Assembly (NCBI GenBank): GCA_017555565.1
Contig: JAFZGF010000061.1
Coordinates: 14,431-78,430, forward strand
Source: Oscillospiraceae bacterium
GTDB taxonomy: Bacteria; Bacillota; Clostridia; Oscillospirales; Ruminococcaceae
DNA: 64,000 nt
Direction: 5' to 3'
In this document: piece by piece, positions 22,917 through 60,867 of the stretch
Numbering within the stretch: position 1 is the stretch's first letter
Layout of the letters: the number at the start of each line of letters is the position of its first letter
The notes under the pieces: model-generated
The model's input: the letters and a program-made list of their open reading frames with translations, nothing else
Databases searched by the model: none
What the model was told of the DNA's origin: nothing
Position numbers and translations under genes: made by a program

Positions 22917-22918
22917 TT

Positions 22919-23080
22919 GGTGTGGATGAAGGGGCTTGAATGTCATCCGTTAAAATTTTTTCCAGTAAAATAAAGTAAAATTGGCATTTAAAAACGAGCG
23001 CACCAGCGGCGTACCGAGAAATATGCTAAAGTTCGGGCGAAGATCGAGTGGAGATCGAGTGCCACTCGAGCAAATACGCT
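22919..23080. repeat. Copy A of a ~160-bp dispersed intergenic repeat family
   Basis: It aligns by eye over ~160 bp, with few mismatches, to 30713-30873. Shared blocks: ggatgaagg..cttgaatgtcatc; the hairpin with loop cagtaaaataaa; cgtacc-N-cgtaccga; and gatcgagtggagatcgagtgccactcga (8-bp stem tcgagtgg/ccactcga). Confidence 0.7.
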
Positions 23081-23220
23081 AATAATAGTATATATTAATG
23101 TAAATATAAAATTTACAAACCACCAACAAATAAATCAGACTGCCCGATTTGTTGACCGGACAGCCTGATTTATTTGTCTATTTTAAAAACCCATGAAAGG
23201 AGGATTGCAATTTATTTTTT

Positions 23221-23435
23221 TTACTTTTTACAACCGGCAAAGTTCCACGCACTGCGGCACATATCTTCAATTGTGTGGTCTGCAAACTCCAATGCTTTCA
23301 GATGACCTGTTGCCAAGTCAACAACATGCAGATAATCTCTGAGACATGTACCGTCTTTTTATGTCACGCCTTTAATTATCCAACAACGGTATGGCTTCCT
23401 ATATAGCCTGTACTGCCTGTTACCAAAACGTTCAT
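23221..23435 (-). pseudogene. galE: Decayed UDP-glucose 4-epimerase gene (internal deletions, premature stop)
   Basis: On the minus strand, 5 nt after the galT stop, the reading is ATG-MNVLVTGSTGYIGSHTVVG-stop. This is the GalE Rossmann N-terminus (GxxGxxG). It is then joined directly to ...DGTCLRDYLHVVDLATGHLKALE and FADHTIEDMCRSAWNFAGCKK-stop, which resemble the mid and C-terminal GalE segments. About 70 codons remain of a ~330-codon gene. Confidence 0.7.
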
Positions 23436-23440
23436 ACCTG

Positions 23441-24928
23441 CTACTTACTGTTTACATATTTTACAAATTTTTTAAATGCTGCAATACCTTCAGGTGTGCG
23501 TTTATAAACGCCTGCATGTTCCAAAACTTTACTGAACACCTTACCTACCTCTACCTTCAGGATTGATAATGTATTTTCATTTGTAAATGTATATTTTTCT
23601 TTAAGCTCTTCCAGCCATTCGTTGTGTTTCTGTGCTGTTTCAGAAAGAGGCTTTCCTTCGACAATTGATTTTTCCAGCTCTGCCAGTTCAGCCTTAAGGC
23701 GTGAAGGGAGCACAGCAAGCCCCATAACTTCTATTAGGCCAATGTTTTCTTTTTTGATATGATGAAGCTCGTCATGAGGATGAAAAACGCCAAGTGGATG
23801 TTCGTCGGTAGTGATATTATTTCTCAGCACCAGGTCAAGCTCGTAGTTTTCTCCCCTGCGGCGGGCAATAGGTGTTATTGTATTGTGCATAACACCATCA
23901 GTTTCGGCAAACACAAAAGCATCAATATCGGTATATTCTCTCCAGCAGGCAAGAATTTTATCGGCAAGTTTTACAAGGCGTTCTTTGTCCGCGCCATTGA
24001 GTCTGATAACGCTCATAGGCCATTTAACAATACCCGCTTTAACATCCTCAAATCCTTCAAAAGAAATTTTGTGCTCAACAGCAGCACGTTCCATAGGGAA
24101 AACATATCTGCCGCCCTGAAAATGTTCGTGGCTTAAAATGCTGCCGCCTACGATAGGCAGGTCTGCATTGCTTCCTATAAAGTAATGCGGAAAAAGAGTA
24201 ACATAATCAAGCAGCTTTTCAAAAACAGATTTATCTATAACCATCGCTTTGTGAACTTCGTTAAACACGATGCAATGCTCAGGATAGTACACATAGGGAC
24301 TGTACTGCATAAACCATTTTTCATTGCCTATGCTGACCGGAACAACGCGGTGGTTTTGTCTTGCAGGATGGTTCATTCTCCCTTCATAGCCTTCGTTTTC
24401 ACGACAAAGCTGACATTTTGGATAGTCTGTCTGAGATGCATTTTTAGCAGCTGCAATTGCTTTTGGGTCTTTTTCCGGTTTACTGAGATTTATTGTTATG
24501 TCCAGATTCCCGTATTCTGTCGAAGTTTTCCAGCGCATATCCTTCTGTATGCGGTATCTTCGTATATAATCACTGTCCTGTGAAAATTTATAAAACCAGT
24601 TTGTTGCTTCCTCAGGACTTTTTTCATACAGAAGCTTAAACCTGCTCTGAACCTCTCTTGGCATAGGTGTAAGTACACCCATTATTTTTGTGTCAAACAG
24701 GTCACGGCTTACAGTATCATCAGCACATATACCGCGCTGTACAGCATTATTTAAAAGTGCCGTAAGAATTTCTTCCAAAGATATTGGACGGCATTCTTCT
24801 TCGGTGTAGCTGTCCAGCTGTAAAACCGCAAGCAGACGATTTACGATAAACGTTTTATCGCATTCTGCAAAAAGCTCTTTGCTGATACCATAGTTAACCA
24901 AAGCAGAAATATAAGAATTTATATTCAT
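23441..24928 (-). CDS. galT: Galactose-1-phosphate uridylyltransferase, Gram-positive long type
   Basis: 495 aa. The active-site segment is GGSILSHEHFQGGRY. The overall length and layout fit type 2 GalT of Firmicutes. Confidence 0.9.
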   Translation of the reverse strand: MNINSYISALVNYGISKELFAECDKTFIVNRLLAVLQLDSYTEEECRPISLEEILTALLNNAVQRGICADDTVSRDLFDTKIMGVLTPMPREVQSRFKLLYEKSPEEATNWFYKFSQDSDYIRRYRIQKDMRWKTSTEYGNLDITINLSKPEKDPKAIAAAKNASQTDYPKCQLCRENEGYEGRMNHPARQNHRVVPVSIGNEKWFMQYSPYVYYPEHCIVFNEVHKAMVIDKSVFEKLLDYVTLFPHYFIGSNADLPIVGGSILSHEHFQGGRYVFPMERAAVEHKISFEGFEDVKAGIVKWPMSVIRLNGADKERLVKLADKILACWREYTDIDAFVFAETDGVMHNTITPIARRRGENYELDLVLRNNITTDEHPLGVFHPHDELHHIKKENIGLIEVMGLAVLPSRLKAELAELEKSIVEGKPLSETAQKHNEWLEELKEKYTFTNENTLSILKVEVGKVFSKVLEHAGVYKRTPEGIAAFKKFVKYVNSK

Positions 24929-25127
24929 AAGAATAACTCCTTATTGTACCCTTACGCCTCCGTAGGGACGAATATTAAGAATATGACAGCCATGCTGGTG
25001 GTCTGTGTGATTGCCTGCAATTTCGTGTGCACAAGCCACCGTCTGCTTTAATGCTTACTATTTAACAGGGTGTTCTGCTTGCTGTAAGGAGTGGGATACA
25101 GCAAGCAAAACAGAGATGGATATATTA

Positions 25128-26504
25128 TTATTTAGAAGGATTGTTTGTTGAAGACAGTTTTTCGTTTGCTTTTTCTACGTCAAGACGGGAAAGAATAAGT
25201 GTAACGATAACTGTCATTACAAGTGGCAGCCAGAGATATACAATATGCAGCATATTCATCGCAGAAGCTGTCTGCACTGCTGCCTGTTCGATAAATCCTG
25301 CGCTGTCAAGCAGCCAGCCGCACATTGCTGTGCCTATGCTGCCGCCCACCTTGATACCAAAAGACGAACAGGAATACATTGTGCCGTCAATTCGTTTGCC
25401 TTTTGTAAGGAATGTGTATTCGGAGCAGGATGCGATAAGAGCGTTAAGGTCGCCCTGCAATGGGCTTGTACCAAATGCAGCAACTGCTGTGAATACAAGC
25501 ATAAGAGGAATGCTGTGCATATATCCTGCCACAATTACCAGTGCTCGGCCAATAATTGCAACCACATAACCCATAAGGTTGATTTTATACATGCCGTTAA
25601 ACTTTTTAACCAGATAAGGTGTTATAAGCAAACCGATAATAAGAGGGATATTGATAGCCAGGGAGAAGTCACCCAGAAGACCTTCATCACCAAGGACATT
25701 TTTCATAAAGTACACACCCATATTAAGCATGGAAGCATAAAGCTGTGTGCCCACATAAGTGCCGCAAATCATAAGGTAATACTTGTTGGTAAACAGCATT
25801 TTCGCTGCCTGAACCATTGTGTATTTTTCTTCCTGCTCCTGCAGGTCTTTGTCATCTGTTTCATCAAGTTCTTCCGCAGAAAGTTCTTTTACGGACAAGC
25901 CGGAGATTGTATTTGTAACAAGACCGATTATTGCATATATAATAGCAACTGTCTTCCAGCCCTGTGCGCCGCCGCCAAAAAAGTTTACAGCGTCAATAGT
26001 GATATACTGGATAAGAAGTGATGTGCCGAATGCAAAGATGAAGCGGATGGAGCCAAGCTGAACACGTTCGGAGCTGTTTTTTGTTATCAGTGCTGTAAGA
26101 GATGCATATGCAATGTTGTTTGCTGTGTAGAATACAGCGTTGAGCAAAGTATATGCAACAAAGAAGTATGCATACTGTGCGGTTTCGCCCCAGGATTCCG
26201 GAACCATAAATATTGCAGCAAGTGTAACTGCACAGCCAATATAACCGTAAATCATCCAAGGACGGGCTTTACCCATTTTTGTGTGGGTTTTGTCAATCAT
26301 TGAGCCAAAGAATATGTCGGTAACACCGTCAAACAGCTTACTTGCAGCCATAAGAGTACCAACCATACCGATGTTCATACCGATTGTTTCGGTAAGATAG
26401 AACATCATAAACGTGGAAAGGAATGCATATACAACGTTACCGGCAATATCACCAGAGCCGTAGCCCACCTTGTTGTACCATTTCAAATATTTCTTTTCGG
26501 TCAT
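25128..26504 (-). CDS. Glycoside-pentoside-hexuronide (GPH) family sugar:cation symporter
   Basis: 12-TM protein. The N-terminus KVGYGSGDIAGNVVYAFLSTFMMFYLTETIGM is typical of MelB/LacS-type carriers. It lies immediately downstream of lacZ. Confidence 0.8.
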   Translation of the reverse strand: MTEKKYLKWYNKVGYGSGDIAGNVVYAFLSTFMMFYLTETIGMNIGMVGTLMAASKLFDGVTDIFFGSMIDKTHTKMGKARPWMIYGYIGCAVTLAAIFMVPESWGETAQYAYFFVAYTLLNAVFYTANNIAYASLTALITKNSSERVQLGSIRFIFAFGTSLLIQYITIDAVNFFGGGAQGWKTVAIIYAIIGLVTNTISGLSVKELSAEELDETDDKDLQEQEEKYTMVQAAKMLFTNKYYLMICGTYVGTQLYASMLNMGVYFMKNVLGDEGLLGDFSLAINIPLIIGLLITPYLVKKFNGMYKINLMGYVVAIIGRALVIVAGYMHSIPLMLVFTAVAAFGTSPLQGDLNALIASCSEYTFLTKGKRIDGTMYSCSSFGIKVGGSIGTAMCGWLLDSAGFIEQAAVQTASAMNMLHIVYLWLPLVMTVIVTLILSRLDVEKANEKLSSTNNPSK

Positions 26505-26519
26505 AATTATTCTCCTGTA

Positions 26520-29500
26520 CTATTTTGATTCAGGGATTATGCGGATTGCGAAATCTATTGTTTCGTCGTTAAGTGCGTATTTTTCCATAAGTACCGGACC
26601 ACAGCTGTTGGAGCCGATGCCGTTCTGACGGTAGTCAAGGCACAATACTGTACTGCCGCTTTCGCAAAGTTCAAAATTGTGTGCTTTTGCGGTAAGTTCT
26701 TCCTGTGTATAACGTGAAGCATTAAAGCTGAAATTTTCAGGTGCTACAGCTGTAATTCTAAGGTTTTCGCTTTCAAGAGTTACATAATCACAGTCGCCGT
26801 GAGCACCGTTTTCCTGTGGACGGATATAATCTTCATGCAGGCTGTCAACTGTATTTTCAAAAACGCTGTGGTGTGCGGCAATTCGTTTGTCCTGATAGTT
26901 TTCCATAGGTCCAAGGCCGTAGTAGCTTACCTGTTTAAGTTCTTCCGGTAAGAAAAGGCGGAGTCCGAATCTTGGCAGCTGTGGAAATTCCATATTGCGT
27001 TTTGCAAGGATATTTGCAGTTACTGCACCATTTACCGATACTGTCCAGTCAATTTCAATATCCATAAATCTCTGCACAGATGGTGCGGAGATGGAAACAT
27101 CTGAATGGATGCGGATTTCACTGTCTGCCATTACATAATGTGTACGATAAGCTCTTGTAACAGCCTTATCATATCTTGCTGCCATCCAGTGAAGCTTAAG
27201 CTTTCTGTCGTTGTCGGTAGGTGCTCTCCATATGTTAAGGTTCATTGCTTCTTTCAGGAGGTTCTTTCCTTCAAATTCCAGCTGACAAAACATACCTGTG
27301 AATTTATCATAGGTATAGTTGAAATTCGAAGTGTTTACTGAAATATAACGAGCACCTTCGTCAACATTGAGGGAGGCTTCTGTAGCAATTTTTGATTTCC
27401 AAATCTGCAAAGCTTTCTGGTTGCGGCCATCTGCGTTTTCCAGCAAAAGTTCGTCGAAGCCAAGCAGATGACCCGCTTTAAGCAGTTCGGTATCTTTTTT
27501 AAGATAATAATTTATTTTAAGATAGCATCTGCCTTTTTCCGGTACATCAATTTCCAGATGTGCTGTACCTTCTGAATGAGGAAGTACGGCAGGTATTTTT
27601 TCTATTTCTCTGTTGTATATTACATAACCGTCACAGTTAATTTCATAGGAGATTGTAAGATAATCATTGAGATTTACAAAATCCATATAGTTGTGCAAAG
27701 TTACTGTTCCTGTCTTCTGGTCAAAACATGTAACTCTTGCAGGTCTGTGAACATTTTTGTATTCCATAAGTCCTGTGTGAGGTCTGCGGTCAGGATAAAC
27801 AAGGCCATCTACACAGAAGTTGCCGTCGTGCGGATATTCCCCGTGGTCACCGCCATAGAGATATTTATCCTTTCCATTTTCAGCTTTGCCTGCATATACA
27901 GCATGGTCACACCATTCCCATACAAAACCACCGCTCATCACATCGTTTGCATTGATAAAATGCCAGTAGTCTTCAAGATCGCCAGGGCCGTTGCCCATTG
28001 CATGAGAATATTCACACATAAGATACGGTTTATCCGGATTGGAATCAACATATTCCTGCAATGTTTCCAGAGAAGGATACATATTGCTGTAAAGGTCAAT
28101 GTTGGAAAAATCGTATTTACGTTTGCGGCTGCGGTACTGTGCGCTTTCGTAATGTGTCAGTCTTGCAGGGTCAAAGTGTTTTGTCCATGCAAGTGCTGCT
28201 TCAAAGCAGCAGCCATAAGCACTTTCGTTGCCCATGGACCATGCAATAACACAAGGACGGTTTTTGTCTCTCTGTACACATTTCTGTGTGCGGTCCATAG
28301 TAGCTTCAAGGAATTCAGGGTTGTCTGCAAATGGTTCGTTCCAATGTTCAACATGGTCTTCCCAGCGGTCGTTTTCACTGCAGTAAAGTTCTGCCGCACC
28401 ATGGCTTTCGTGGTCTGCTTCGTCTATAATCAAAAATCCGTACTGGTCACAAAGCTGATAGAACATAGGTGCATTTGGATAGTGACTTGTTCTGATAGCA
28501 TTAAAGTTGTATGCCTTTATCATCTGCAGGTCACGTTTCATATGCTCAACACTGATAACCGGGCCTGTAACAGGGTCGGAGTCGTGACGGTTAACACCTC
28601 TGAATTTAATTGGATTGCCGTTGAGGTAAACCTGATTGTCTTCTATATATATTTCTCTGAATCCGATGCGGTCTGTAATAACTTCATCAGATGTTTCGAT
28701 AACCATTGTGTAAAGATATGGCTGTTCAGGATTCCAGAGAATTGGTCTGTACACATCAAATACAGCCTGGTGAGTATATGACGCACCGTCAAATGCCTGT
28801 GGCTGTGCTGTTGCAACCATCTTGTTTTTTGCATCAAACAGGGTTATTTTTACAGGAATCTCTTCTTTTTCAAATGCAAAACGCATTCTCACTGTTCCGT
28901 TATCATCACCCAAAGCAACAGTTGTAAAATAATCGCGGATAAAATTTTCAGGGCGGCTGAGGATATATACATCACGGAAGATACCCGATGTACGGAATTT
29001 ATCCTGGTCTTCAAGATAGCTGCCGTCACACCATTTAAGAACCAGTACAGCAAGAGTGTTGCTGCCTTCTCTTACAACAGATGTAATATCAAATTCACTT
29101 GTAGAGTGTGATACTTCGCTGTATCCTAAAAACTGACCATTAAGCCATACATAGAAGCAGGAGTCAACACCTTCAAAGTTTAAAAATGCTTTTGGTGCAT
29201 TTGCTTTGTGAGTATAGTCAAAGCTGCAAATGTATGCGCCGCAAGGATTGTCATAAGGTACATACGGAGGGTCTGCAGGAAACGGATATTTGATATTGGT
29301 ATACTGATGATGGTCATAGCCATGGTTCTGCCACACACTTGGCACTGGGATGTAATCCCAGTTTTCAGCATTGTAACCTTCTTCATAGAAATATTCTTCA
29401 AAGTCATGAATGCTTTCGCAGTATCTGAATTTCCAGTATCCGTTCAGAAGCTGAAATCTGTCAGAATGTTCACGGTTTTCAACCAAATCATCCATTCTTG

Positions 29501-29585
29501 CAGATGCCGGGATAAAGTATGAACGGTTAGGAGTTGTGCCCATATGGTGTGTATGCAAATCTTCGTAATATGCAGGGATAATCAT
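26520..29585 (-). CDS. lacZ: Beta-galactosidase, GH2 family
   Basis: 1021 aa. The acid/base region is WSMGNESAYG. The nucleophile region MCEYSHAMGNGPG parallels E. coli LacZ ILCEYAHAMGN. Confidence 0.92.
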   Translation of the reverse strand: MIIPAYYEDLHTHHMGTTPNRSYFIPASARMDDLVENREHSDRFQLLNGYWKFRYCESIHDFEEYFYEEGYNAENWDYIPVPSVWQNHGYDHHQYTNIKYPFPADPPYVPYDNPCGAYICSFDYTHKANAPKAFLNFEGVDSCFYVWLNGQFLGYSEVSHSTSEFDITSVVREGSNTLAVLVLKWCDGSYLEDQDKFRTSGIFRDVYILSRPENFIRDYFTTVALGDDNGTVRMRFAFEKEEIPVKITLFDAKNKMVATAQPQAFDGASYTHQAVFDVYRPILWNPEQPYLYTMVIETSDEVITDRIGFREIYIEDNQVYLNGNPIKFRGVNRHDSDPVTGPVISVEHMKRDLQMIKAYNFNAIRTSHYPNAPMFYQLCDQYGFLIIDEADHESHGAAELYCSENDRWEDHVEHWNEPFADNPEFLEATMDRTQKCVQRDKNRPCVIAWSMGNESAYGCCFEAALAWTKHFDPARLTHYESAQYRSRKRKYDFSNIDLYSNMYPSLETLQEYVDSNPDKPYLMCEYSHAMGNGPGDLEDYWHFINANDVMSGGFVWEWCDHAVYAGKAENGKDKYLYGGDHGEYPHDGNFCVDGLVYPDRRPHTGLMEYKNVHRPARVTCFDQKTGTVTLHNYMDFVNLNDYLTISYEINCDGYVIYNREIEKIPAVLPHSEGTAHLEIDVPEKGRCYLKINYYLKKDTELLKAGHLLGFDELLLENADGRNQKALQIWKSKIATEASLNVDEGARYISVNTSNFNYTYDKFTGMFCQLEFEGKNLLKEAMNLNIWRAPTDNDRKLKLHWMAARYDKAVTRAYRTHYVMADSEIRIHSDVSISAPSVQRFMDIEIDWTVSVNGAVTANILAKRNMEFPQLPRFGLRLFLPEELKQVSYYGLGPMENYQDKRIAAHHSVFENTVDSLHEDYIRPQENGAHGDCDYVTLESENLRITAVAPENFSFNASRYTQEELTAKAHNFELCESGSTVLCLDYRQNGIGSNSCGPVLMEKYALNDETIDFAIRIIPESK

Positions 29586-29686
29586 TTTATTCTCCTTTAT
29601 CTTTTTCTTTTTTACGTTACGCCCTATCTTCGATTAGATTGTAACCCAAGATTTTCCGAAAAAGAATAAACTATATTAGACAAAAC

Positions 29687-29790
29687 ATGCACAAAATGAT
29701 ACAATGGTATCAACAAAAACCACCATTTATGGCCATTTTCAGACCATTATATGCACAAAATTACACTCATTTGTCAAAGATGCACAAATA
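29687..29790. promoter_or_regulatory. Three direct repeats ATGCACAAA(A)T in the lacZ/araC divergent region (candidate AraC-type operator half-sites)
   Basis: atgcacaaaat at 29687-29697 and 29751-29761, and atgcacaaata at 29780-29790, all in the same orientation between the divergent lacZ and AraC-family genes. Confidence 0.3.
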
Positions 29791-29810
29791 CAGCAAGGAG
29801 AATTTGTTAA

Positions 29811-30665
29811 ATGTATTCAAATTCCGCTTATCTGAAAAATTCAAAAATTCCATACAAAGATAAATCCAAACCGCTTATAGTAACCTGCTGCGGCACATAC
29901 CGACTTTTCCGCAAAGAAAAGCTGCCTACCTGGAGACCTAAAGGCAGTAATGATTATCAGCTGTTATATGTTGTTGCCGGAAAAACAACTTTTTATATAA
30001 ATAAAAAACCGCATGAGGTAACTGCCGGGCAGATGGTTTTGTTCCACCCTTATCAGGAACAGCATTATGAATATTTCGGCAAGGATAAGCCGGAGGTATT
30101 CTGGGTTCATTTTACCGGCAGCAATGTAAAAAATATTCTTAAATCATATAATATTCCTATGAATAAAAATATTTTCAACTGCGGCACTTATGCAACCTAT
30201 TCCTATATTTTCAAGGAAATGATTGATGAGCTGCAGAATCGCCGAACCGGTTTTCAGGAACTGCTGGAAATGTATTTAAGACAGATATTTATCCTTATCC
30301 AGCGCAACGAAGAAAAAGAAAACACACAGGTAAGCAGTTATCTTCTGGACGAGATAGAGTATGCCAGAAAGTTTTTTACCGAGCATTACAACGAAGATAT
30401 CAATATCTCGGAATACGCACAGTCAAGGGGCATGAGTGTAAGCTGGTTTCTGAGAAATTTCAAACATATTACCAAAAAGTCCCCAATGCAGTATATTTTA
30501 AATATCCGCATAAACAACGCTGTCAGCCTGTTGGAAACTACTGACTACAATGTAACCGAGATTGCTGCTATTATCGGGTATGATAATCCTTTGTATTTCA
30601 GCCGTATTTTCCACAAACAAAAGGGTATTTCTCCATCGGAATACAGAAAAAGAGCGAAAACCTGA
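29811..30665 (+). CDS. AraC-family transcriptional regulator (cupin sensor + HTH)
   Basis: The C-terminal dual HTH reads ...SVSWFLRNFKHITKKSPMQYILNIRINNAVSLLETTDYNVTEIAAIIGYDNPLYFSRIFHKQKGISPSEYRK. It is divergent from lacZ. Confidence 0.85.
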   Translation: MYSNSAYLKNSKIPYKDKSKPLIVTCCGTYRLFRKEKLPTWRPKGSNDYQLLYVVAGKTTFYINKKPHEVTAGQMVLFHPYQEQHYEYFGKDKPEVFWVHFTGSNVKNILKSYNIPMNKNIFNCGTYATYSYIFKEMIDELQNRRTGFQELLEMYLRQIFILIQRNEEKENTQVSSYLLDEIEYARKFFTEHYNEDINISEYAQSRGMSVSWFLRNFKHITKKSPMQYILNIRINNAVSLLETTDYNVTEIAAIIGYDNPLYFSRIFHKQKGISPSEYRKRAKT

Positions 30666-30712
30666 TAATCATTCCGCATACACAGCTTCCTCTTAAATCC
30701 AAGCATAAATAT

Positions 30713-30873
30713 GGTGCGGATGAAGGGAATTGAATGTCATCTGTTAAAAATTTTCCCAGTAAAATAAAGGAAAATTGGCATTTAAAAATGTATCGTACCA
30801 GAGGCGTACCGAGGGATATGCTAAAGTCCAAGCAGTGATCGAGTGGAGATCGAGTGCCACTCGATCAAATACA
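30713..30873. repeat. Copy B of the ~160-bp dispersed repeat family
   Basis: Direct-orientation copy of 22919-23080. It contains the hairpin aattttcc(30749-56)-cagtaaaataaa-ggaaaatt(30769-76). Confidence 0.7.
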
Positions 30874-30920
30874 ATTAATATCTGTAAAGTTTATAATCGA
30901 CACATAGCTTACGTTCTAAT

Positions 30921-30986
30921 ATCTCAACCCAATCTCAATCCAATCTCAATCCAACCTCAACCCAATCTCAATCCAATCTCAATCCA
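30921..30986. repeat. Tandem repeat, 11 bp x 6 (also readable as 33 bp x 2)
   Basis: atctcaaccca atctcaatcca atctcaatcca acctcaaccca atctcaatcca atctcaatcca. Confidence 0.9.
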
Positions 30987-31058
30987 GCAACAGAATATAT
31001 TTTTCCTATATTGACCACTGTTCCTATATTTATAAGTCAAACCTTTATATAAAGTAAT

Positions 31059-31086
31059 TAGCCTCAAATTATCTTATTTGAGGCTA
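31059..31086. terminator. Hairpin terminator next to the AlbA_2 gene stop
   Basis: 11-bp stem tagcctcaaat / atttgaggcta with loop tatctt. A T-run follows on the plus side, and there are short T stretches on the minus side. Confidence 0.5.
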
Positions 31087-31090
31087 AATG

Positions 31091-32803
31091 CTATTTTTTT
31101 ATTATCCAATTACTTGTTTGTCGATTATCTGAATCTGTAACAATCACATTACTTTTTCTTAAAGATGTCAATAATGTCAGTACTTTTCGTTTCTTTTGTT
31201 TATCATCCAAAACATTAGGAAGTTTATCCCATAACAGGTCATCAAGCTGTTTTCTATTTGCTTTTCCAAACTTATTGATGTAATCGACTATCATATCTTT
31301 ATAATATTGATCATTAAAACCCTTATTTTTAATATATTTCGCCTCTTCATCAATACTTTGAGCTATTTCTGCAGACAAATACAAATTATTTATACGTCCT
31401 TCAACCAATTTGTATTTCCTCAAGTGTTCCACAGCCTCTTTACTAAGGGATTGTTTTTTTTGAACCTTATCCAACAAGTATACGGTTTCTAATGTTAGCT
31501 CTGGATGTCTAAACAACATATAGGTGTATTTTTCATCAATAATTTTACCATATACAGTCACTTCCACTTGATCATGCTTGGACAAGTCGTAGTCCGGCAT
31601 AGGAAAATATTTCTCTTTTTGAATTCGATATATTTTCTTTATACCACTTGTAGCCGTATCAATCATATGAAAATTAACCATCGCATCCGCAAGTAACCAG
31701 TTTCTATAGAACGGAGGATTATATGTTGGTTGCAATACAGTTTCAATACTTTCTGGTAAAAAATTACCAGGGTTTGTAATTGTTATACTTTCTTCAAATT
31801 CATTTACATATATTCTTCCACCTAACTGGTAATTTGAATGAGCTATACAGTTATTAATCAACTCTCTAAGTAGCCATGCATCATACTGCTGAGTTTCTTT
31901 AGGGAAGAGAGACATTTGATCTGGCATATATCTGTATGTCAGATTTCTAATTTTAGCGAATATTTTATCAACTACAGTAATAAATGGGATGGTAAAAATT
32001 GAATAATCTTTTATTGATCCATCTTTATCTATTAATCGCCACATCACAGAAGGTGGATATTGTAGCTTATAATCGTGTTCCGAACTACCTAATAAAACAA
32101 TTGCTGCATTCGTTAATTGCCCATCAATAACTAACTTTAATTTACCTAGAAATTGTTCATCACTTAAGGAATCAATTTCTTCTGCTATGTGAGCTCTATT
32201 CATTTTTTCTTTATATTTTTCACGAGCTAAAGCAATCGCATCTCTATCTAAATGTTCGATTGTCGCATTAGGTACAATTTGCTTTGACCAATCAGAGCGT
32301 TCCTGTCTTCTTATCTGGTCTATTTTGAATTGCTGTAAATTTATTAAACTTTCTCCAGCTCTAGCATAAAAAACATTTTTCCAACCCGTAGGGATCCCTA
32401 TTGCGGCCGCTGGTATTTTAAACATTAAAACACGTTTCGGCTTACCATTTACAATAGGGTAAATTTCAATAATATCTGTAAAAGTTATATTTCCTGTTGT
32501 AGACTTAGCAATTTCATACTTAAAGTTTTCTAACAGAGAAATATTACCGTTTTTAAACGATGTCCCACATATATGTTTTTTATCTTTTTCACTTACTCCT
32601 AGAATTAACCACCCATATTGTTGATTCTTGAGATTAGCTTCATTACTAATTGCAGAAAAATACTGGCCAATTTTATCTGTTGAATATTGGCCCGAAGCTT
32701 CTTTAAATTCTACAATCTCATATTCCCATCTATCTATCAGTAAGCTAAGAAGATCATAATATTCGGTATTTGGTGATTTTTTATCATAGGTGAAATATTC
32801 CAT
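31091..32803 (-). CDS. AlbA_2 (Schlafen-like) + HATPase_c_4-like + C-terminal wHTH protein
   Basis: The N-terminus EYEIVEFKEASGQ...NQQYGWLILGVSEKDKKHICGT fits the AlbA_2 divergent-AAA pattern (E..EFK ... GG.l.iGv.d.g.i.G). The middle segment LLRELINNCIAHSNYQLGGRIYVNEFEESITITNPG fits the RecG-C-terminal-like ATPase pattern (NA..HrDY...i.i..f.d.i.i.NPG). Confidence 0.65.
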   Translation of the reverse strand: MEYFTYDKKSPNTEYYDLLSLLIDRWEYEIVEFKEASGQYSTDKIGQYFSAISNEANLKNQQYGWLILGVSEKDKKHICGTSFKNGNISLLENFKYEIAKSTTGNITFTDIIEIYPIVNGKPKRVLMFKIPAAAIGIPTGWKNVFYARAGESLINLQQFKIDQIRRQERSDWSKQIVPNATIEHLDRDAIALAREKYKEKMNRAHIAEEIDSLSDEQFLGKLKLVIDGQLTNAAIVLLGSSEHDYKLQYPPSVMWRLIDKDGSIKDYSIFTIPFITVVDKIFAKIRNLTYRYMPDQMSLFPKETQQYDAWLLRELINNCIAHSNYQLGGRIYVNEFEESITITNPGNFLPESIETVLQPTYNPPFYRNWLLADAMVNFHMIDTATSGIKKIYRIQKEKYFPMPDYDLSKHDQVEVTVYGKIIDEKYTYMLFRHPELTLETVYLLDKVQKKQSLSKEAVEHLRKYKLVEGRINNLYLSAEIAQSIDEEAKYIKNKGFNDQYYKDMIVDYINKFGKANRKQLDDLLWDKLPNVLDDKQKKRKVLTLLTSLRKSNVIVTDSDNRQTSNWIIKK

Positions 32804-32967
32804 ATATCCTCCTAAGAATCAATATTTTGTCATTATCATAATGTTTATGCACATACAACAAACCTAAAATACGATAGCATTTATTAAATAAAATTTGTTT
32901 TAAACATTATAGCACATTTACACAACTATATGGTCTACAAATAATCTTCTATCCTTTTATGCACATT

Positions 32968-33070
32968 GGCAAATGAAGGGAATTATGATTCATATTCTTA
33001 ATGCCAAAAAAACGCTATTTTACTGGGTTTTCCGAACTTTGTCATATCAATCGTATCGGAAATCGTACCG
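32968..33070. repeat. Degenerate copy D of the dispersed repeat family
   Basis: Shares ggcaaatgaagggaatt (as in copy C2/B), an inverted cccagtaaaat block (ctattttactggg), and cgtatcggaaatcgtaccg (compare cgtaccggaaacgtaccg in C2). Confidence 0.45.
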
Positions 33071-33077
33071 TTTCCAT

Positions 33078-33121
33078 AAAAACAGTAAAACCAACCCTAA
33101 TGAGTCAGTTTTACTGTTTTG
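33078..33121 (-). terminator. Terminator of the HEPN-DUF3800 operon
   Basis: Stem aaacagtaaaac / gttttactgttt with a 16-nt loop. It lies 7 nt beyond the DUF3800 stop, and a T-run follows on the minus strand. Confidence 0.65.
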
Positions 33122-33127
33122 AGACAA

Positions 33128-34270
33128 TCAATATTTTAGTCTCTCCATAATTATAGTTTTAAGTCTACTGTTCATAGATATAGATTTAATAGCAATTTCC
33201 AAATTTTGTGCATAGAAGTAATTAAAACTCATATTATTTCTCAAGTGTTTCGGAAATGTAATTGAAAACATGATTCCTGTAGTTATAGTTGCTGCCCAAT
33301 CATTTAATGGAACTGTAAACTTTATCTTATTTATTGAAATATTATCAAGAACCTTTGATATTAACTTCATATCCCATTCACTACACTCAAGCCAAGGTTC
33401 TTCTTTTATGTAATGAAAAATCATTTTGTCATATGCATGACGAACAACACTCACTATATTGTCCGCAATTTGCAGCAAATCATTATCTTTACTGTCTTCA
33501 AACTTTATGTCAATCGAATAATTTTTTAGTTCTTTTCGCATTGTATCAGAAAATTCTTTGATATTGTCGTGAATATACTCAATATCCGAATTAGATTGAT
33601 TATTATCCACTTTTATAAAAGTGATTAATTCTGCCAACGCATTCATATTAATCAAATTTGTAATCTGTGGGTTATCATACCATCCAAATGTCATAAAATC
33701 TTGATAACATTTATCCGTTATATTTTCATCAAGTATTTTATTGGCCATAATTTTAGCAGCATTTTCTGGCAATTCTTCAGAATATTCGTAATTGATCAAA
33801 AAATTTAGATAGTCTATAAATTCTGTTTGACCCAAATTTTGTATATACTTTAAATATTGGACAAAAAAATCATCTTTTTGCTTAGATAAAAATGAAGCTT
33901 GGACATAGAAATGCTCTGGTATAGTCTCTTGATATTCAATACCATACAAAGATAGCAAAAGCATTGTGGATATATAAAATTTTTTATCATATAAGATGAT
34001 ATAAAAATGCTTATTATCAAAAATATGCTTTAGCATGTAGTTCAGTTCTGCATTCCTTTTTCGCACTAAAAGATCACTACCTTTTATTTCTCCTGATATT
34101 TTATATTTTCTTTTAAATGCTTGATACTTTTCTATCAATATTTTCTCGTCTTTTTCATTATTAACAACTACAGCTGCCAAAGCAAAAGTCGGTTGTGTTT
34201 GGAAATTCAGTAAATCATCTTTTTGCAACACACATCCACTTTGTCCAGATTCATCAAAATATATTTTCAT
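33128..34270 (-). CDS. DUF3800-family protein
   Basis: It starts MKIYFDESGQSG (the DUF3800 N-terminal hydrophobic-DESG motif) and carries the C-terminal LLQIADNIVSV motif (lQ.AD.ia). ATGA overlap with the upstream gene. Confidence 0.65.
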   Translation of the reverse strand: MKIYFDESGQSGCVLQKDDLLNFQTQPTFALAAVVVNNEKDEKILIEKYQAFKRKYKISGEIKGSDLLVRKRNAELNYMLKHIFDNKHFYIILYDKKFYISTMLLLSLYGIEYQETIPEHFYVQASFLSKQKDDFFVQYLKYIQNLGQTEFIDYLNFLINYEYSEELPENAAKIMANKILDENITDKCYQDFMTFGWYDNPQITNLINMNALAELITFIKVDNNQSNSDIEYIHDNIKEFSDTMRKELKNYSIDIKFEDSKDNDLLQIADNIVSVVRHAYDKMIFHYIKEEPWLECSEWDMKLISKVLDNISINKIKFTVPLNDWAATITTGIMFSITFPKHLRNNMSFNYFYAQNLEIAIKSISMNSRLKTIIMERLKY

Positions 34271-35655
34271 AATACGCCTTTATCTATAATAGATTTTCCT
34301 TGGGTTTCACTCAAAAGTTTCCAACCATTATGTGTATTTAATTCTTCTGCAATAGCATCTCGTCTATCAATTCCTAACGAAAGACAAATATGATATTCCA
34401 AAAGAACACGCAAAATATAAATAGCCTCCAAGAGTTCCTCTCCTTTTAAAGCTTTTGCCTCCTTAGATTTTCCGTAATGTGTATAGTAATGTCTTGTATC
34501 GGCAATTGTTTGTGCATATTCTTCATTTTCAATATAATATTCACAAAACAAGCCGTCGTTTTTCCCTATTAACAAATCGTTTAATCGCGATACTAGAATA
34601 ATAAAATTACAATTTTTATCCATCTGGGTTTCATTTAAAAGCAATTTATTATATCGCTCTGAATCTCCAAAACGACTCTTAACTGAGTCAACATATTTAT
34701 CCTTTTTATTACCATAGAAAAACCTCGAATGAAAAGTTTCTAAAGCCTGTACAATATTCAAAAAAACCATTTCATGTGGCATATCCTTATATTTGAATAG
34801 CGATAAGTAAAGATTAAAAACAGGTGTTAATTTTTCCAATTTATCATTTATATCTGCTTCTTCAGGTAAATCTTTAAGACTAAAATTGTAATGCCATCTT
34901 TGAATTTTTAATACATCAAGATTAGCTCCTGAAGTATATAAATAATGTTTATGATAATCTTCATATTTATTTGCTATTAAATATACATCATCGTAATCGT
35001 ACAAATATTGTTCTTCAATATTTACATTATTTTTTATAGCAAAAGAAATAAGAGACATAATCTTATCTCTTATAGAAACCAATTCTTTTACGCTACTTTT
35101 TTCAATAGTTTCTATTTCAAGTACAAGACGCTGTACAATCTTGGTTTCCTCTTCTGTAGGCAAAACAAATAGCGGATTATTTACATAGCTAGAAAATGTT
35201 ATTTTTGCTCCAAACCAATTATATGTTTTTTTGTCTATACTATTCTTGGCTTTAATGCCGTCTTCCGTTTCTTCAAATGTAGAAAAACCACTCCACGGAT
35301 ATGCATTTTTTAGAGTACATACCATTTTATTATATGATGAATCAATTCTTTCAGAGTTCGACCATACCATATAGTCTGAAATAAAAATAAGTCGTTGATT
35401 ACTAAAGGCATAGGTATGATTTTTACTGCATTTATTATTAAAAAGAGTTACTACTGCACCTGAATTCAATTTACCAATTATATATGGTAATGTACCATAA
35501 CTTTTTCCAAAAAATGACTCTGAAGAAACTTCTTTTACAAGATTTAAAAGGATTACACCTTTTTGTTTGTTGTAAATCAATTCTCCAGTTATGTGTTCAT
35601 TTAAAACTTGAAACACCCCGGTATAATGTCTGTCAACATCAATATTTTCCCACAT
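34267..35655 (-). CDS. HEPN-motif protein, ApeA-like architecture
   Basis: 462 aa. The C-terminal helical region carries an Rx4H HEPN motif (ADTRHYYTHYGKS), followed by amphipathic helices (LEAIYILRVLLEYHICLSLG). The large N-terminal domain is of unknown fold. Size and layout resemble ApeA (HEPN abortive-infection protein). Confidence 0.5.
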   Translation of the reverse strand: MWENIDVDRHYTGVFQVLNEHITGELIYNKQKGVILLNLVKEVSSESFFGKSYGTLPYIIGKLNSGAVVTLFNNKCSKNHTYAFSNQRLIFISDYMVWSNSERIDSSYNKMVCTLKNAYPWSGFSTFEETEDGIKAKNSIDKKTYNWFGAKITFSSYVNNPLFVLPTEEETKIVQRLVLEIETIEKSSVKELVSIRDKIMSLISFAIKNNVNIEEQYLYDYDDVYLIANKYEDYHKHYLYTSGANLDVLKIQRWHYNFSLKDLPEEADINDKLEKLTPVFNLYLSLFKYKDMPHEMVFLNIVQALETFHSRFFYGNKKDKYVDSVKSRFGDSERYNKLLLNETQMDKNCNFIILVSRLNDLLIGKNDGLFCEYYIENEEYAQTIADTRHYYTHYGKSKEAKALKGEELLEAIYILRVLLEYHICLSLGIDRRDAIAEELNTHNGWKLLSETQGKSIIDKGVL

Positions 35656-35767
35656 AAGTAGTGCTCCTTTTTATTTCATTCTTCACTAATATTATACCAA
35701 ATTCATTTCAATCCTCAAATAGGGAACACAGGTGCAAAACAATTTCTGTAATATCCCAAGTGTCAAA

Positions 35768-36176
35768 GTGGATAAATTGGCTTGAAGGTCATACAGCTAA
35801 AATTTCCCCAGTAAAATAAAAGAAAATTGCGTACTTTGGCAAATGAAGGTGGACTTGAAGGTCATCCACCTAAAATTTTCCCAGTAAAATAAAGGAAAAT
35901 TGGAGCTTTAGAAAGGCGCGTACCGGAAACGTACCGATAATTTATTTCGATTTTATTATTTAAAATTTCTATTAAAGCTACATATCATCATATAAAAACG
36001 GCTTGAATTCCAAATCCGTAAAGCAGAAGTCCAAAATTCTCAGTAAAATAAAGGAATTTTGGACTTTGCCTTTTTTAGAAATCAATAGTGTACTTAAATC
36101 GTACGCAATAAAATCGTACGTGGGTTTGAGCTTCGGATTTTTTTACTTTATTAGTAAAATAAGGGGATTTCGAGAT
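35768..36176. repeat. Cluster of 3-4 tandem degenerate copies (C1-C4) of the dispersed repeat family
   Basis: C1 35768-35836, C2 35837-35940, C3 36001-36120, and possibly C4 36140-36176. Each has the conserved loop (t)cagtaaaataaa(g). In C3 the stem is lengthened and differs in sequence: agtccaaaattc (36028-39) / gaattttggact (36054-65). The paired CGTAC boxes also recur (cgtaccggaaacgtaccg; tcgtacgcaataaaatcgtacg). Confidence 0.6.
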
Positions 36177-36462
36177 GATGTTTTATATACTTGCCCCTTC
36201 GTCTAGAGGGGAGTTCTCGAGAAATGTGATACAAATGTACATTTTATATACGTATATAAATCAATTTAAAAGTGTATAATTGTAGTACATTTTTAATCTT
36301 CTTGTGGGTTTTCAAATAAGCTGGATAATATATATACTAAATTGTTAACATTGGTTAAATCAATATATACGCTAATTAACAATTACAGTGTCAATGAAAG
36401 TTACAGATTTAATTTTGTACTCTTATATAATAAAGCCAAACATCAAAAAGGAGTACAAAACT

Positions 36463-36825
36463 ATGACAACTACTACATATTTCGCAACACAGCATAGCAT
36501 CGACAGAGCAATGGAAAGAATCAACCTCAATGAACGAGAAGCGATGAGGAAAATAGATATAGCATTGCAGCGTGGCAAATGCGCAGAAAATTACACATCT
36601 TCCAGAGAACGTAAATACCTTGAAAATCAAAGTCATAACGCCATAGCAGTAGCATTTGATAACTTCTGTTATCTTTTCAGTTACCAGGGAGAATGCATCA
36701 CAGTATATGCCCTTCCAGATTGGTGGGAAAGAAAGAAAATGTACAACGGCAAAGAAAAAATCCGCAGGCCTAAAAAATACTTTAGTTTCTATAATGAAGA
36801 AATGGAGGCACGCATTTATGCTTGA
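36463..36825 (+). CDS. Hypothetical small protein (120 aa)
   Basis: An aaggag RBS lies 8 nt before the ATG at 36463. I prefer this start over the listed upstream start at 36388, which lacks an RBS. No recognisable domain. Confidence 0.5.
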   Translation: MTTTTYFATQHSIDRAMERINLNEREAMRKIDIALQRGKCAENYTSSRERKYLENQSHNAIAVAFDNFCYLFSYQGECITVYALPDWWERKKMYNGKEKIRRPKKYFSFYNEEMEARIYA

Positions 36826-36964
36826 CTTCTTGGCTTTGATTATTTTAGGGGTTTTTATCCTTCCTTTTAAAGGCATAAGTATGATAATGGATGGAAACTA
36901 TAGTGCCGGTATACCAACTATGTTGTTTGGTTTCGCCCTATGGACAGTATTTTTCAACTGGTGA
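36818..36964 (+). CDS. Hypothetical 48-aa two-TM peptide
   Basis: An internal Met of the listed ORF 36656..36964 overlaps the stop of the preceding gene by 8 nt. The product MLDFLALIILGVFILPFKG...TMLFGFALWTVFFNW has two hydrophobic helices. Confidence 0.35.
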   Translation: MLDFLALIILGVFILPFKGISMIMDGNYSAGIPTMLFGFALWTVFFNW

Positions 36965-37057
36965 GAAATAGCAGGCAGATATCTTTTATCTGCCTGTATT
37001 TATTTATAAAACAATATCTGCTATAATTTTAATATATTTATCCTTTCTGGAGGACAT

Positions 37058-38182: not shown

Positions 38183-38257
38183 ATGTCAATCAAAGTTACA
38201 TATAACACATCCATACACATTAGAATAAAATCACAATAAAAACAAGTGAGGAAACTA

Positions 38258-41623: not shown

Positions 41624-41628
41624 CTTAT

Positions 41629-41653
41629 GAGCCACTTTATCGTGGCTCTTTTT
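41629..41653 (+). terminator. Terminator after the kinase-STAND gene
   Basis: gagccac-tttatc-gtggctc followed by ttttt. Confidence 0.75.
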
Positions 41654-41763
41654 CGTTGTCAACGAAAGCTACATTTTCAATTACCCTACTATCTATAATA
41701 AACTCAAGTTCCATACTTGCTATAAACTTATGAACCAGACACAAATCAACGGAGAATTATTAT

Positions 41764-42081: not shown

Positions 42082-42181
42082 AACTATTTCTTTTAGTTGA
42101 TGTACCAAGTCTTAACTAGCAACTATTTTCAAATCCTATTTATCAATATACATACTGATGCTTATAACAAAACAAACCCAT

Positions 42182-42228: not shown

Positions 42229-42254
42229 TTAAATAAGCGAATTAGTAAGGTTAC

Positions 42255-48536: not shown

Positions 48537-48550
48537 AATTTTGTTTATTG

Positions 48551-60863: not shown

Positions 60864-60867
60864 CAAA

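Follow-up and report, generated by a model that had tools for sequence, protein, structure and literature searches.

Repeats at the boundaries of lac/gal and defence modules

The window, a 64,000-nt stretch of the Oscillospiraceae bacterium contig JAFZGF010000061.1 (C41), carries a lac/gal module, a single AlbA_2/HATPase_c_4 gene, an ApeA-type HEPN gene paired with a DUF3800 gene, and a remaining low-GC island that continues to a tRNA-Leu(CAG) gene (Table 1). The GC content from repeat copy B to the window end is 28-35%, as compared to 41% for the genome, and lacZ is absent from 30 of the 31 other genomes of the genus, the single exception being a 34%-identical match. Both the drop in GC content and the rarity of lacZ are evidence of foreign DNA. 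Modules A-B, B-D, and D-C1 contain no recombinase or transfer genes, and the earlier note's observation that no recombinase lies within the window was borne out. Beyond the window, C41 contains a TnpV gene, a NikA-like gene, and relaxase and integrase remnants.

Table 1 Repeat copies, modules, and the tRNA-Leu(CAG) gene (window positions, except where C41 is given)
Feature	Position	Strand	Description
Copy A core	22918..22940	+	TGGTGTGGATGAAGGGGCTTGAA; 21/23 nt match the reverse complement of the tRNA-Leu(CAG) 3' end
Copy A arm	22941..23071	+	GTCATCC, AT-rich hairpin, boxes
Copy A arm motif	22963-22974		CAGTAAAATAAA, within the AT-rich hairpin
Copy A arm boxes	22999-23004; 23010-23015		CGCACC; CGTACC
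Copy A GATCGAGTG boxes	23042-23071		Three boxes
Module A-B	23441..30665		galT, MFS sugar transporter, lacZ, AraC regulator; GC ~41%
Copy B core	30712..30734	+	TGGTGCGGATGAAGGGAATTGAA; 22/23 nt match the tRNA 3' end
Copy B arm	30735..30866	+	Begins GTCATCT
Copy B hairpin	30757-30768 (loop)		Stem AATTTTCC/GGAAAATT, loop CAGTAAAATAAA
Copy B CGTACC boxes	30794-30799; 30805-30810
Copy B GATCGAGTG boxes	30837-30866
11-nt tandem repeat	30912-30997		Precedes the AlbA_2/HATPase_c_4 gene
Module B-D	31091..32803	-	One AlbA_2/HATPase_c_4 gene
Copy D	32966..33072	+	Degenerate core TTGGCAAATGAAGGGAATTATGATTCAT
Copy D hairpin segment	33014-33027		GCTATTTTACTGGG, inverted in place
Copy D boxes	33052-33057; 33064-33069		CGTATC; CGTACC
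Module D-C1	33128..35655	-	ApeA-type HEPN gene and DUF3800 gene
Copy C1	35768..35834	+	Degenerate core GTGGATAAATTGGCTTGAAGGTCAT; motif 35809-35820
Copy C2	35835..35937	+	Degenerate core TTTGGCAAATGAAGGTGGACTTGAAGGTCATCC; motif 35882-35893
Copy C2 boxes	35919-35935		CGTACCggaaaCGTACC
Copy C3	36000..36120	+	Core remnant GGCTTGAA
Copy C3 hairpin	36041-36052 (motif)		13 bp, same loop as other copies
Copy C3 boxes	36100-36105; 36115-36120		CGTACG
Additional motif remnant	near 36151-36170		TAGTAAAATAAGGGGA, past C3
Remaining low-GC island	36388..64000, continuing to the tRNA		GC 28-35%; kinase-NLR, Upx-like, GmrSD, R-M, DdmDE-like/WYL, AAA_14
tRNA-Leu(CAG)	C41 c[84926-85012], window position 70496-70582		Sole tRNA on the contig

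An earlier note, made from the letters of the window, had reported a dispersed repeat of about 160 bp at these module boundaries. The analysis confirmed copies A, B, D, and C1-C3 at the positions given, far in excess of chance. Copies A (22918-23080) and B (30712-30873) share 87% identity across 160 nt, and C2 and B share 78% identity across 95 nt; C1 and C3 are partial copies, the arm of C1 ending within its first CGTAC box, where it is interrupted by C2. The motif CAGTAAAATAAA has five exact matches in the window, each on the + strand and within a repeat copy. With up to one mismatch, eight matches were found as compared to 1.5 expected, a number reached in none of 100 shuffles. Pairs of CGTAC were likewise in excess in the window (4 observed, 0.13 expected), and five of the 18 such pairs genome-wide lie within the repeats. 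An arm-based profile search of the 2.08-Mb genome returned A, B, C1, C2, and C3 only, plus one weak match to the motif alone on another contig.

The repeat core is a copy of the tRNA-Leu(CAG) 3' end

The first conserved block of the repeat is no free-standing hairpin, and its relationship to a tRNA had been overlooked. It is the reverse complement of the final 23 nt of the tRNA-Leu(CAG) gene, which lies 34 kb downstream, 6.5 kb past the window end, in the same orientation. In copy A, this core covers the CCA, the discriminator, the 3' strands of the acceptor and T-stem, and the T-loop. The left edge of all copies coincides with the tRNA 3' end, and identity to the tRNA ends at the T-loop edge in A and B as well as in G025 and the sister species G010. 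Every copy lies on the + strand as a direct repeat oriented as the tRNA, with the intact tRNA at one end of the series, and a reversed control of the core pattern gave 0 matches. Preservation of the core is not graded by distance, as A and B are the most distal copies and the best kept. Those of D and C1-C3 have degenerated, and none of them could at any time have formed a working tRNA end.

Arms contain a conserved hairpin and paired boxes

Adjacent to the core, each arm contains GTCATCC, an AT-rich hairpin with AGTAAAATA approximately 22 nt from the core, and two CGTACC boxes approximately 75-95 nt from it; GATCGAGTG boxes are present in only some arm alleles. A second CGTACC pair, CGTACCaatCGTACC, adjoins the tRNA (84870-84886 on C41, 40 nt from tRNA-Leu(CAG)) and, together with a terminator for the tRNA, makes up the tRNA-side arm. 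CGTACC pairs thus occur on two sides, in the arms of A, B, D, C2, and C3 and beside the tRNA, and the same two-sided arrangement is found in G025, G010, and metagenome contigs L200-L207. These boxes are putative arm-type sites of a tyrosine integrase family with intact members at the same tRNA elsewhere, and they would be bound by the integrase N-terminal domain.

Two details of the earlier description had to be revised. The hairpin had been described as a conserved loop on a variable stem; in an alignment of 13 natural arms, stem and loop are both nearly invariant, and the impression of a variable stem derives mainly from C3. A supposed tcgagtgg/ccactcga hairpin turned out to be three GATCGAGTG boxes, ordered forward-forward-reverse in A and B. 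The order is forward-reverse-reverse in a metagenomic relative, and copy A has only two such boxes in other strains, so that they look like protein-binding boxes rather than a fixed hairpin.

The AGTAAAATA hairpin is probably an architectural site, by analogy one for DNA bending or for an accessory factor. Its orientation is inverted in L206 and in D, where the segment AATGCC..CTATTTTACTGGG is the reverse complement of CCCAGTAAAATA..GGCATT in B. Of 32 species of the genus, 8 have the motif at additional intergenic positions, one to three per genome, and some of these positions have no integrase in the vicinity; a control motif had zero such sites.

Related integrases are found beside the same tRNA

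A tyrosine integrase gene survives in broken form as a PF00589 fragment containing stops, at a distance of 4.3 kb from the tRNA (C41:80295-80588), with a truncated relaxase start fused to it (C41 80295-80645). Across 97 aa, the fragment is 84.5% identical to an intact integrase of 437 aa located approximately 230 nt from tRNA-Leu(CAG) in G010. No intact integrase of this family was found in the genome studied here, and G010 and L200-L207 have intact orthologues immediately next to tRNA-Leu(CAG). An identical 448-aa integrase adjoins this tRNA in three distinct chromosomal backgrounds. A contig with an intact element encodes TraG, a PF03432 relaxase, a NikA-like protein, ParAB, and two integrases, and terminates in CGTACCaatCGTACC, the terminator, and then the tRNA core. 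In both G010 and G025, the core recurs in a second exact copy, and TCGTAC or CGTACC boxes come after it, with the AGTAAAATA motif between core and boxes in G025. In L206, the order is integrase, arm, core, and then directly a second arm (inverted motif and CGTACCagaaatCGTACC) and a defence island, which is an accretion junction with both arms.

Strains differ in cargo behind a shared core and arm

In 11 conspecific strain contigs, the AraC gene, a 45-nt flank, and the core are all kept, and the arms are kept as a type, copy A's arm being at the same place in every one. The cargo past the arm that follows the lac/gal module (copy B) is different in each of the 11; divergence begins immediately past the second box, and nothing in this genome matches the divergent cargo. 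One strain has a G010-type arm at the same core, and L184 has a second site following a two-gene module. Contigs of other strains break or diverge precisely at the tRNA 3' end. The HEPN-DUF3800 pair is missing in one strain that retains both flanks, with the left breakpoint inside the D core; the other coincides with the ribosome-binding site of the gene. Polymorphic presence or absence with breaks at the core was seen in the 11 contigs, at the tRNA 3' end, and, for one of two breakpoints, in D. Two earlier proposals are supported, that the repeats sit at module boundaries and that genes here are exchanged as repeat-bounded modules, the latter by these differences in cargo behind the same core and arm.

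Probable accretion of integrative elements and its alternatives

The tRNA-derived core, the arm boxes, the broken and intact integrases, the accretion junction in L206, and the variation in strain cargo together point to attachment (att) sites. The repeats are very probably att junctions of integrative elements that target the tRNA-Leu(CAG) 3' end, and we are similarly confident that the elements were tandemly accreted and have decayed, leaving modules like cis-mobilizable elements (CIMEs). The earlier suggestion of protein-recognised recombination sites is supported. The core of approximately 23 nt, from the CCA to the T-loop, is copied from the tRNA, and a tyrosine integrase would cut and rejoin inside it. 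Each att copy would then consist of the core and the element's arm on one side, the other arm being at the tRNA gene. Successive elements could enter either the tRNA or the core-plus-arm site of a resident island, resulting in tandem accretion, and would subsequently shed their integrase and transfer genes through deletion. This would leave the lac/gal, AlbA_2, and HEPN-DUF3800 modules and then the 34-kb defence island in series, all without an integrase, with a core-plus-arm site at the boundary of each, as in CIMEs. The array in this genome would now be immobile unless an integrase comes in trans.

As in CIMEs, the att-flanked modules lack integration and transfer genes and lie in tandem with decayed ICE remnants near a tRNA. 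The internal junctions do not have two arms: B, D, C1-C3, and the second site in L184 each have one arm only, with neither an integrase-side arm nor an integrase trace. Such traces would be expected from simple accretion, and their absence requires assuming that clean deletions occurred repeatedly; deletion is demonstrably active, as the decayed conjugative element joins the start of a relaxase to part of an integrase. These same junctions are what an integron-like platform would explain, in which the modules were never complete elements, the core, one arm, and one to four genes form a self-contained cassette, and a trans-acting integrase from an element residing at or visiting the tRNA moves cassettes singly between any two core-plus-arm sites. 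Such a platform would also account for the very small modules, the tandem "empty" sites C1-C2-C3, the covariation of arms with cargo among the 11 strain contigs, and metagenome contig L137, where the same arm type precedes unrelated TetR and ADH genes. We nonetheless consider both the self-contained cassettes and their single movement in trans improbable, given the classical two-arm accretion junction in L206, the visibly decayed conjugative element in this genome, and the cassettes' own promoters and mixed orientations; one cassette at two array positions was not found, and arm-binding integrases usually require both arms to integrate. A possible though unlikely variant is a tRNA-Leu-anchored capture system, in which recombinase-less modules of one to four genes are moved singly by the arm-binding integrase of an ICE at the tRNA, and a single arm suffices owing to a clade-specific architectural factor that binds the invariant AGTAAAATA hairpin whichever way it is oriented. 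A true integron was rejected as a candidate, as IntI, attI, attC boxes, and promoterless co-oriented cassettes were not found, the only integrase in or beside the array being a lambda-type fragment and the genes lying on both strands; the proposed likeness to attC-type cassette recombination sites thus found no support in cores that are tRNA-derived and accompanied by arm-type boxes.

Two further readings dispense with a tyrosine integrase. Conserved non-coding sequence (a promoter, terminator, or small RNA), with modules swapping by homologous recombination without a site-specific enzyme, could draw on arms of 100-170 nt at 78-90% identity that could sustain exchange, on hairpins that fold better than shuffled sequence (z-scores of -1.6 to -4.8), and on purifying selection on AGTAAAATA at one chromosomal intergenic site without an integrase. 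It is very improbable, as Rfam gave no match in the window at the gathering score and none in 22800-36400 even at E <= 1, promoter-like sites were not enriched, the position of the repeats relative to genes is inconsistent, the motif functions whichever way it faces (it is inverted in D and L206), and the left edges are all the tRNA 3' end, with boxes that recur beside integrases. The earlier note had also likened the repeats to REP/BIME and IS200/IS605 elements, which, or MITEs, would be mobilised by a Y1 transposase (RAYT or TnpA) through recognition of the hairpin. A hairpin with a conserved loop does exist, and contig C82 contains two weak-to-moderate Y1_Tnp matches; that contig is unrelated, no Y1 gene is nearby, and IS200/IS605 target-site features are absent. 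Full copies are confined to a single locus in 2.08 Mb, the few extra sites in relatives hold the motif alone, and the tRNA-derived core and linkage to integrases explain the copies, making this analogy exceedingly improbable.

Implications and comparison with known systems

Stacking of att sites beside a tRNA is an already known route of genomic-island building, and its mechanism is established biology. At this locus, it is clearly visible from the comparison of strains. Accretion of integrative elements accounts for the assembly of the lac/gal operon and the ~40-kb defence island (kinase-NLR, Upx, GmrSD, R-M, DdmDE-like, HEPN-DUF3800, and AlbA_2), and for their strain-to-strain differences. 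It makes the locus a tRNA-Leu(CAG) integration hotspot for an integrase family widespread in ruminant and gut Clostridia, and defines precise island limits for the annotation of these genomes, most of which are metagenome-assembled and have contigs that are prone to breaking there. The natural variants of core, motif, and boxes (more than 12 arm alleles) make the site requirements of the integrase directly testable. If one-arm capture were true, gut Clostridia would have a mechanism other than the integron for exchanging defence and metabolic genes as cassettes.

The closest parallel is the tandem accretion of ICEs and IMEs with CIMEs, as in ICESt1/ICESt3 of Streptococcus thermophilus and the tRNA-Lys islands of S. 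agalactiae (Pavlovic 2004; Bellanger 2011; review PMC5704250). Shared with ICESt1/ICESt3-type accretion are site-specific entry at a gene 3' end, direct repetition of that end at each junction, and decayed integrase-less modules between att sites. In contrast, the target here is tRNA-Leu(CAG), in Oscillospiraceae of the ruminant gut. The row comprises at least six or seven sites, some without any intervening module; the smallest modules consist of a single gene, and internal junctions have one arm only. The cargo consists mostly of anti-phage defence genes, together with a lac/gal operon.

In phage lambda attP, the core lies between arm-type Int sites, with IHF sites separating core from arms, and tRNA T-loop integration sites were reportedly described by Williams in 2002. 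The locus resembles these in a core identical to the tRNA from T-loop to CCA, in paired direct boxes, putatively arm-type, on either side, and in a conserved AT-rich element between core and arm boxes, similar to H' between C' and P'1-3. Unlike in lambda, this putatively architectural element occurs in either orientation. To our knowledge, Firmicutes generally lack canonical IHF, and the candidate factors here are HU-like, Xis-like, or an intrinsic bend.

Arrays of integrons and rAID-1, the recombinase-associated immunity-gene arrays of Bacteroidales that Ross et al. are said to have described in 2019, differ from this locus, which has no IntI-type integrase, attI, or attC structure, and has tRNA-derived cores with arm-type boxes and modules with their own promoters in both orientations. 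Like those arrays, it consists of strain-variable small modules in rows, each with one conserved recombination site and served by one tyrosine recombinase at the array end, here in an array anchored on a tRNA gene.

tRNA-Leu(CAG) cores in the repeats

The repeats very probably serve as att sites for a family of tyrosine integrases specific to tRNA-Leu(CAG), and they bound CIME-like modules that make up a tandem accretion array. Copies A, B, D and C1-C3 of an earlier note were found again at the places it gave, and its statement that A and B differ by few mismatches held, at 87% identity over 160 nt. C2 and B share 78% identity over 95 nt, C1 and C3 extend less far, and D has a degenerate start, a hairpin segment inverted in place and the boxes CGTATC/CGTACC. 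There are five exact matches to CAGTAAAATAAA in the 64 kb, each of them on the + strand and within a copy; with at most one mismatch there were eight, as compared to 1.5 expected and with none of 100 shuffles reaching eight, and CGTAC pairs were seen four times in the window against 0.13 expected. Whole-genome BLAST and an nhmmer profile made from 13 natural arms confined full copies to a single locus of the 2.08-Mb, 85-contig assembly. This copy number argues against the REP/BIME and IS200/IS605 analogies drawn earlier, and the RAYT/IS200 reading was rejected on the same grounds. Identity with integron attC sites was also rejected, and a described RNA family was ruled out, as Rfam gave no match in a gathering-score scan of the window or in a scan of the repeat region at E <= 1.

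The earlier note had missed the origin of its first conserved block. Read as the reverse complement, the opening 23 nt of A and B (TGGTGYGGATGAAGGGRMTTGAA) correspond to the tRNA-Leu(CAG) 3' end, from the CCA and discriminator through the 3' strands of acceptor and T-stem to the T-loop. This core has one mismatch to the tRNA in B and two in A, and is progressively degenerate in C1, C2, D and C3. The tRNA 3' end is directly bordered on its outer side by a terminator hairpin and another box pair, CGTACCaatCGTACC, and when both sides are joined, a classical attP layout results: arm with boxes, core, arm with boxes.

Coordinates of the repeats and associated features
Feature	Sequence	Position	Remarks
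Repeat copy A	window	22918-23080	
Repeat copy B	window	30712-30873	
11-nt tandem repeat	window	30912-30997	between B arm and AlbA_2 terminator
Repeat copy D	window	32966-33072	
Sigma-70-like match	window	33017-33045	minus strand
Repeat copies C1-C3	window	35768-36120	
Unrelated direct-repeat pair	window	42100-42223 and 46158-46296	73% identity over 141 nt
1206-aa gene	window	42255-45875	flanked by that pair
PF00589 fragment	C41	80295-80588	two stops; beyond window
Second repeat family	C41	81578-81706 and 84687-84827	L017:5600-5775 and 8700-8890
tRNA-Leu(CAG) gene	C41	c[84926-85012]	same orientation as repeats; 34 kb downstream of C3, 6.5 kb past window end
Palindrome-flanked motif	G000:C3	2900-3010	L037/L157
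GGCGTAC-N4/5-GGCGTAC box pairs	G000:C18	276 and 27152	27 kb apart
399-aa tyrosine integrase	G000:C18	421-1008	adjoins box pair at 276
ychF site	G000:C50	~28100-28446	
ychF site	L033 (G021:C18)	276-1540	
Duplicated tRNA-Leu(CAG) end	L054 (G001:C49)	312-520	

Several further repeats were noted. In another species of the genus (L054), tRNA-Leu(CAG) is preceded, 185 nt away, by a duplicate of its own last 21 nt and a terminator, which is a minimal att-att remnant without cargo. Beyond the window, copies of a second repeat family lie on either side of a 528-aa ORF (RNA_pol_A_CTD at the N-terminus only) and a 393-aa ORF. This repeat consists of a terminator hairpin, GTGGGAGGGAATTTCACCCT.. and CGTACCaa(t/a)CG(T/C)(A/G)CC, and is the integrase-side arm duplicated without a core; this arm is also present beside the tRNA in genome G025. 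The 393-aa ORF, adjoining the tRNA, had no Pfam, NCBIfam or PDB match and a weak PADLOC match to SngA, and no family match supports its identification as a recombinase. A direct-repeat pair unrelated to these families flanks a gene inside the window. The GC-rich repeat GGTGACGGAGTCGACCGCCGCCAGTGGCGGATGAAGGGAGACGGAGG.. occurs in ~20 copies, mostly at contig ends (G000 C2, C6, C12, C14, C27, C34, C36, C37, C38, C59, C61, C64, C65, C68, C72 and C85), and probably represents a multi-copy mobile element at which the assembly breaks; a group II intron was rejected, as RF00029 gave no match.

Cargo turnover among strains

At 99% identity, the AraC protein beside B falls into a cluster of 74 sequences, and the AraC-bearing contigs (L177-L189) all retain PMT_2, A, galT, MFS, lacZ, AraC and a 45-nt flank. 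The strain comparison proposed in the earlier note did reveal cargo differences at the repeats: 11 contigs keep the core and the arm type (GTCATCC, AAAATTTTCCCAGTAAAATAAAGGAAAAT, 15-18 variable nt and CGTACC-N5/6-CGTACC), and immediately past the second box the sequence is unrelated from strain to strain, with no BLAST match in the genome under study, G000. Contigs sharing an arm allele share their cargo (L179/L181 and L180/L185), indicating that the arm travels with the cargo and that the core is the exchange point. One contig (L186) has the arm type of sister species G010 on the same core, another (L184) carries a module of two genes with a further site behind it, and in a third (L187) the core is absent altogether. 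Copy A occupies the same place in every strain with slight drift, and on the tRNA side the contigs of other strains either have their first base precisely at the 3' end of the tRNA or diverge at that point.

Contig L190, whose AlbA_2 gene is 97% identical, agrees with G000 up to the middle of the D core, lacks the D arm and the HEPN-DUF3800 pair, matches again from the HEPN upstream region, and carries different cargo behind C1. An 11-nt tandem repeat (CTCAATCCAAT-like, ~7 copies) is found in L190 too and is thus part of the AlbA_2 module.

From B to the window end, GC content is 28-35% as compared to 41% for the genome. Among the compared genomes, all fragmented MAGs, lacZ is absent from the others of the genus (n=31) except for one 34%-identical match, the PMT_2 genes left of A are variable, and the left flanks of G025:C38 and G010:C15 share nothing with G000. 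A metagenome scan with an A/B-specific 33-mer gave no match. The motif-plus-boxes pattern gave 47, the majority of them apparently by chance; L137 is a true relative over the full length, and the layout recurs in a few more (e.g. L146). A core-plus-motif scan of the genome collection returned G025 only, plus a probable chance match.

A broken integrase and its intact relatives

As had been noted earlier, the window itself contains no recombinase; a broken PF00589 fragment lies past its end. The suggestion that an enzyme might lie elsewhere in the genome was borne out to the extent of this fragment; no intact integrase of its family was found when G000 was searched. The fragment is immediately preceded by genes for TnpV and a NikA-like protein and by the initial 18 codons of a relaxase-like ORF, the whole being a deletion-fused remnant. 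Over 97 aa it shares 84.5% identity with an intact 437-aa integrase of G010, which is located ~230 nt from the orthologous tRNA-Leu(CAG) and is followed by FtsK-like and Rep genes. G010 and G025 (an Oscillospiraceae MAG from goat rectum) each contain one further exact 23-nt core on another contig, followed in G010 by three TCGTAC boxes and in G025 by ..CTAGTAAAATAGCC.. and CGTACCgaaatCGTACC, the layout of A and B.

In gut Clostridia metagenomes, 280 relatives of the integrase family were found at E <= 1e-60. Contig L200 is a complete element of conjugative type, encoding TraG, a PF03432 relaxase, a NikA-like protein, ParAB and two integrases; its end comprises CGTACCaatCGTACC, a terminator and TGGTGCGGATGAAGGG, and the arm is the same as that beside the G000 tRNA. 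One identical 448-aa integrase adjoins tRNA-Leu(CAG) in three distinct chromosomal backgrounds (L203-L205). In L206, this arm and core recur and are followed by a second arm (inverted motif CCTTTATTTTAGG and CGTACCagaaatCGTACC) and a defence island instead of the tRNA. This site is an accretion junction, and core-plus-arm sites like A, B and C2 thus serve as integration targets. On contig C18 of G000, two box pairs, one of them beside a tyrosine integrase, probably belong to another integrated element with arm boxes like those of A and B.

The hairpin motif and the arm boxes

The hairpin had been described as a conserved loop on a variable stem, yet both stem and loop are near-invariant across the 13 natural arms, indicating that the segment is constrained as sequence. 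Variation sits in the spacer before the boxes, and genuine stem covariation was seen in C3 only. The motif always lies between core and arm boxes, but its orientation varies, D and L206 having it inverted. In 8 of the 32 species of the genus, each genome has one to three copies of the same 19-mer, as compared to zero for a control pattern. Among its settings are the interval from a different tyrosine integrase, with GTGGCCCC boxes, to the ychF start, the vicinity of another tRNA fragment (with CAATGTATG boxes) and of a VapE-type element (with GGTTAC boxes), and a chromosomal intergenic site with flanking AAAACATTGTTTT palindromes, where the motif is kept and the neighbouring spacer is not.

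At the intergenic site, downstream of a D-cysteine-desulfhydrase-like gene and with orthologous loci in G002, G022, G025 and G027, the 20-nt motif TTTTCCCAGTAAAATAAAGRAAAA lies between two of the palindromes, fused to a bidirectional terminator. It is kept across species, the adjacent 12-nt spacer is not, and G019 and G010 have the terminator only. The ychF 5' end is another integration hotspot: G021 and G002 carry a 383-aa tyrosine integrase, two GTGGCCCC boxes and the motif AGTAAAATA directly upstream of the start codon, in G000 the sequence at this place is unrelated and carries two GTTACCCG boxes, and homology between genomes starts at the ATG.

The core-motif-boxes geometry of these att sites resembles C'-H'-P' of phage lambda, and by this analogy the motif could, tentatively, be an architectural, DNA-bending or accessory-factor site common to several integrases of the clade. 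An oriT/ori hairpin for an HUH Rep was rejected, as PF02407 occurs only in G010 and G016, both without the motif, and is missing from the eight motif genomes; in the G010 element, the PF02407 Rep adjoins FtsK and Int. Promoter and terminator readings were rejected, there being no enrichment, no usable -35 box and no constant position relative to genes. At one chromosomal site the motif does form the A-tract of the bidirectional terminator, though not in the arms. With the motif inverted in D, its TAAAAT aligns with ATGACA at 17-nt spacing, a 10/12 sigma-70-like promoter match pointing at the AlbA_2 gene that may be chance. What had been taken for a further hairpin in A and B is actually three GATCGAGTG boxes, which differ in number and orientation between alleles and probably form another protein-binding site.

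Probable tandem accretion and its alternative

In a published three-step scheme, an element integrates at a target gene end and decays to an integrase-less CIME, after which another element enters an att site that includes this end (PMC5704250, section 2.3). The repeats very probably fit the att sites of this scheme: an element would integrate at the tRNA-Leu(CAG) gene end and decay to a CIME lacking its integrase, and a further element would enter the att site bearing the gene end. Three observations sit less easily with accretion: internal junctions in G000 retain one arm only, the cores do not decay in order of their distance from the tRNA, and just one of the HEPN-DUF3800 indel breakpoints falls in a core. 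On these grounds an integron-like process is conceivable in which core-plus-arm-plus-cargo units move singly with the integrase acting in trans, which we consider quite improbable; a fuller form of it with a dedicated architectural factor is also doubtful. The same cassette was not found at another array position, exact HEPN-protein look-ups giving only one arrangement.

The value of the tandem accretion array is practical and illustrative: the island boundaries are made exact, the locus is a hotspot for defence and lac/gal genes with documented strain turnover, and the repeats supply a natural series of att variants. As a class, att sites in an accreted CIME array are an already known kind of structure.
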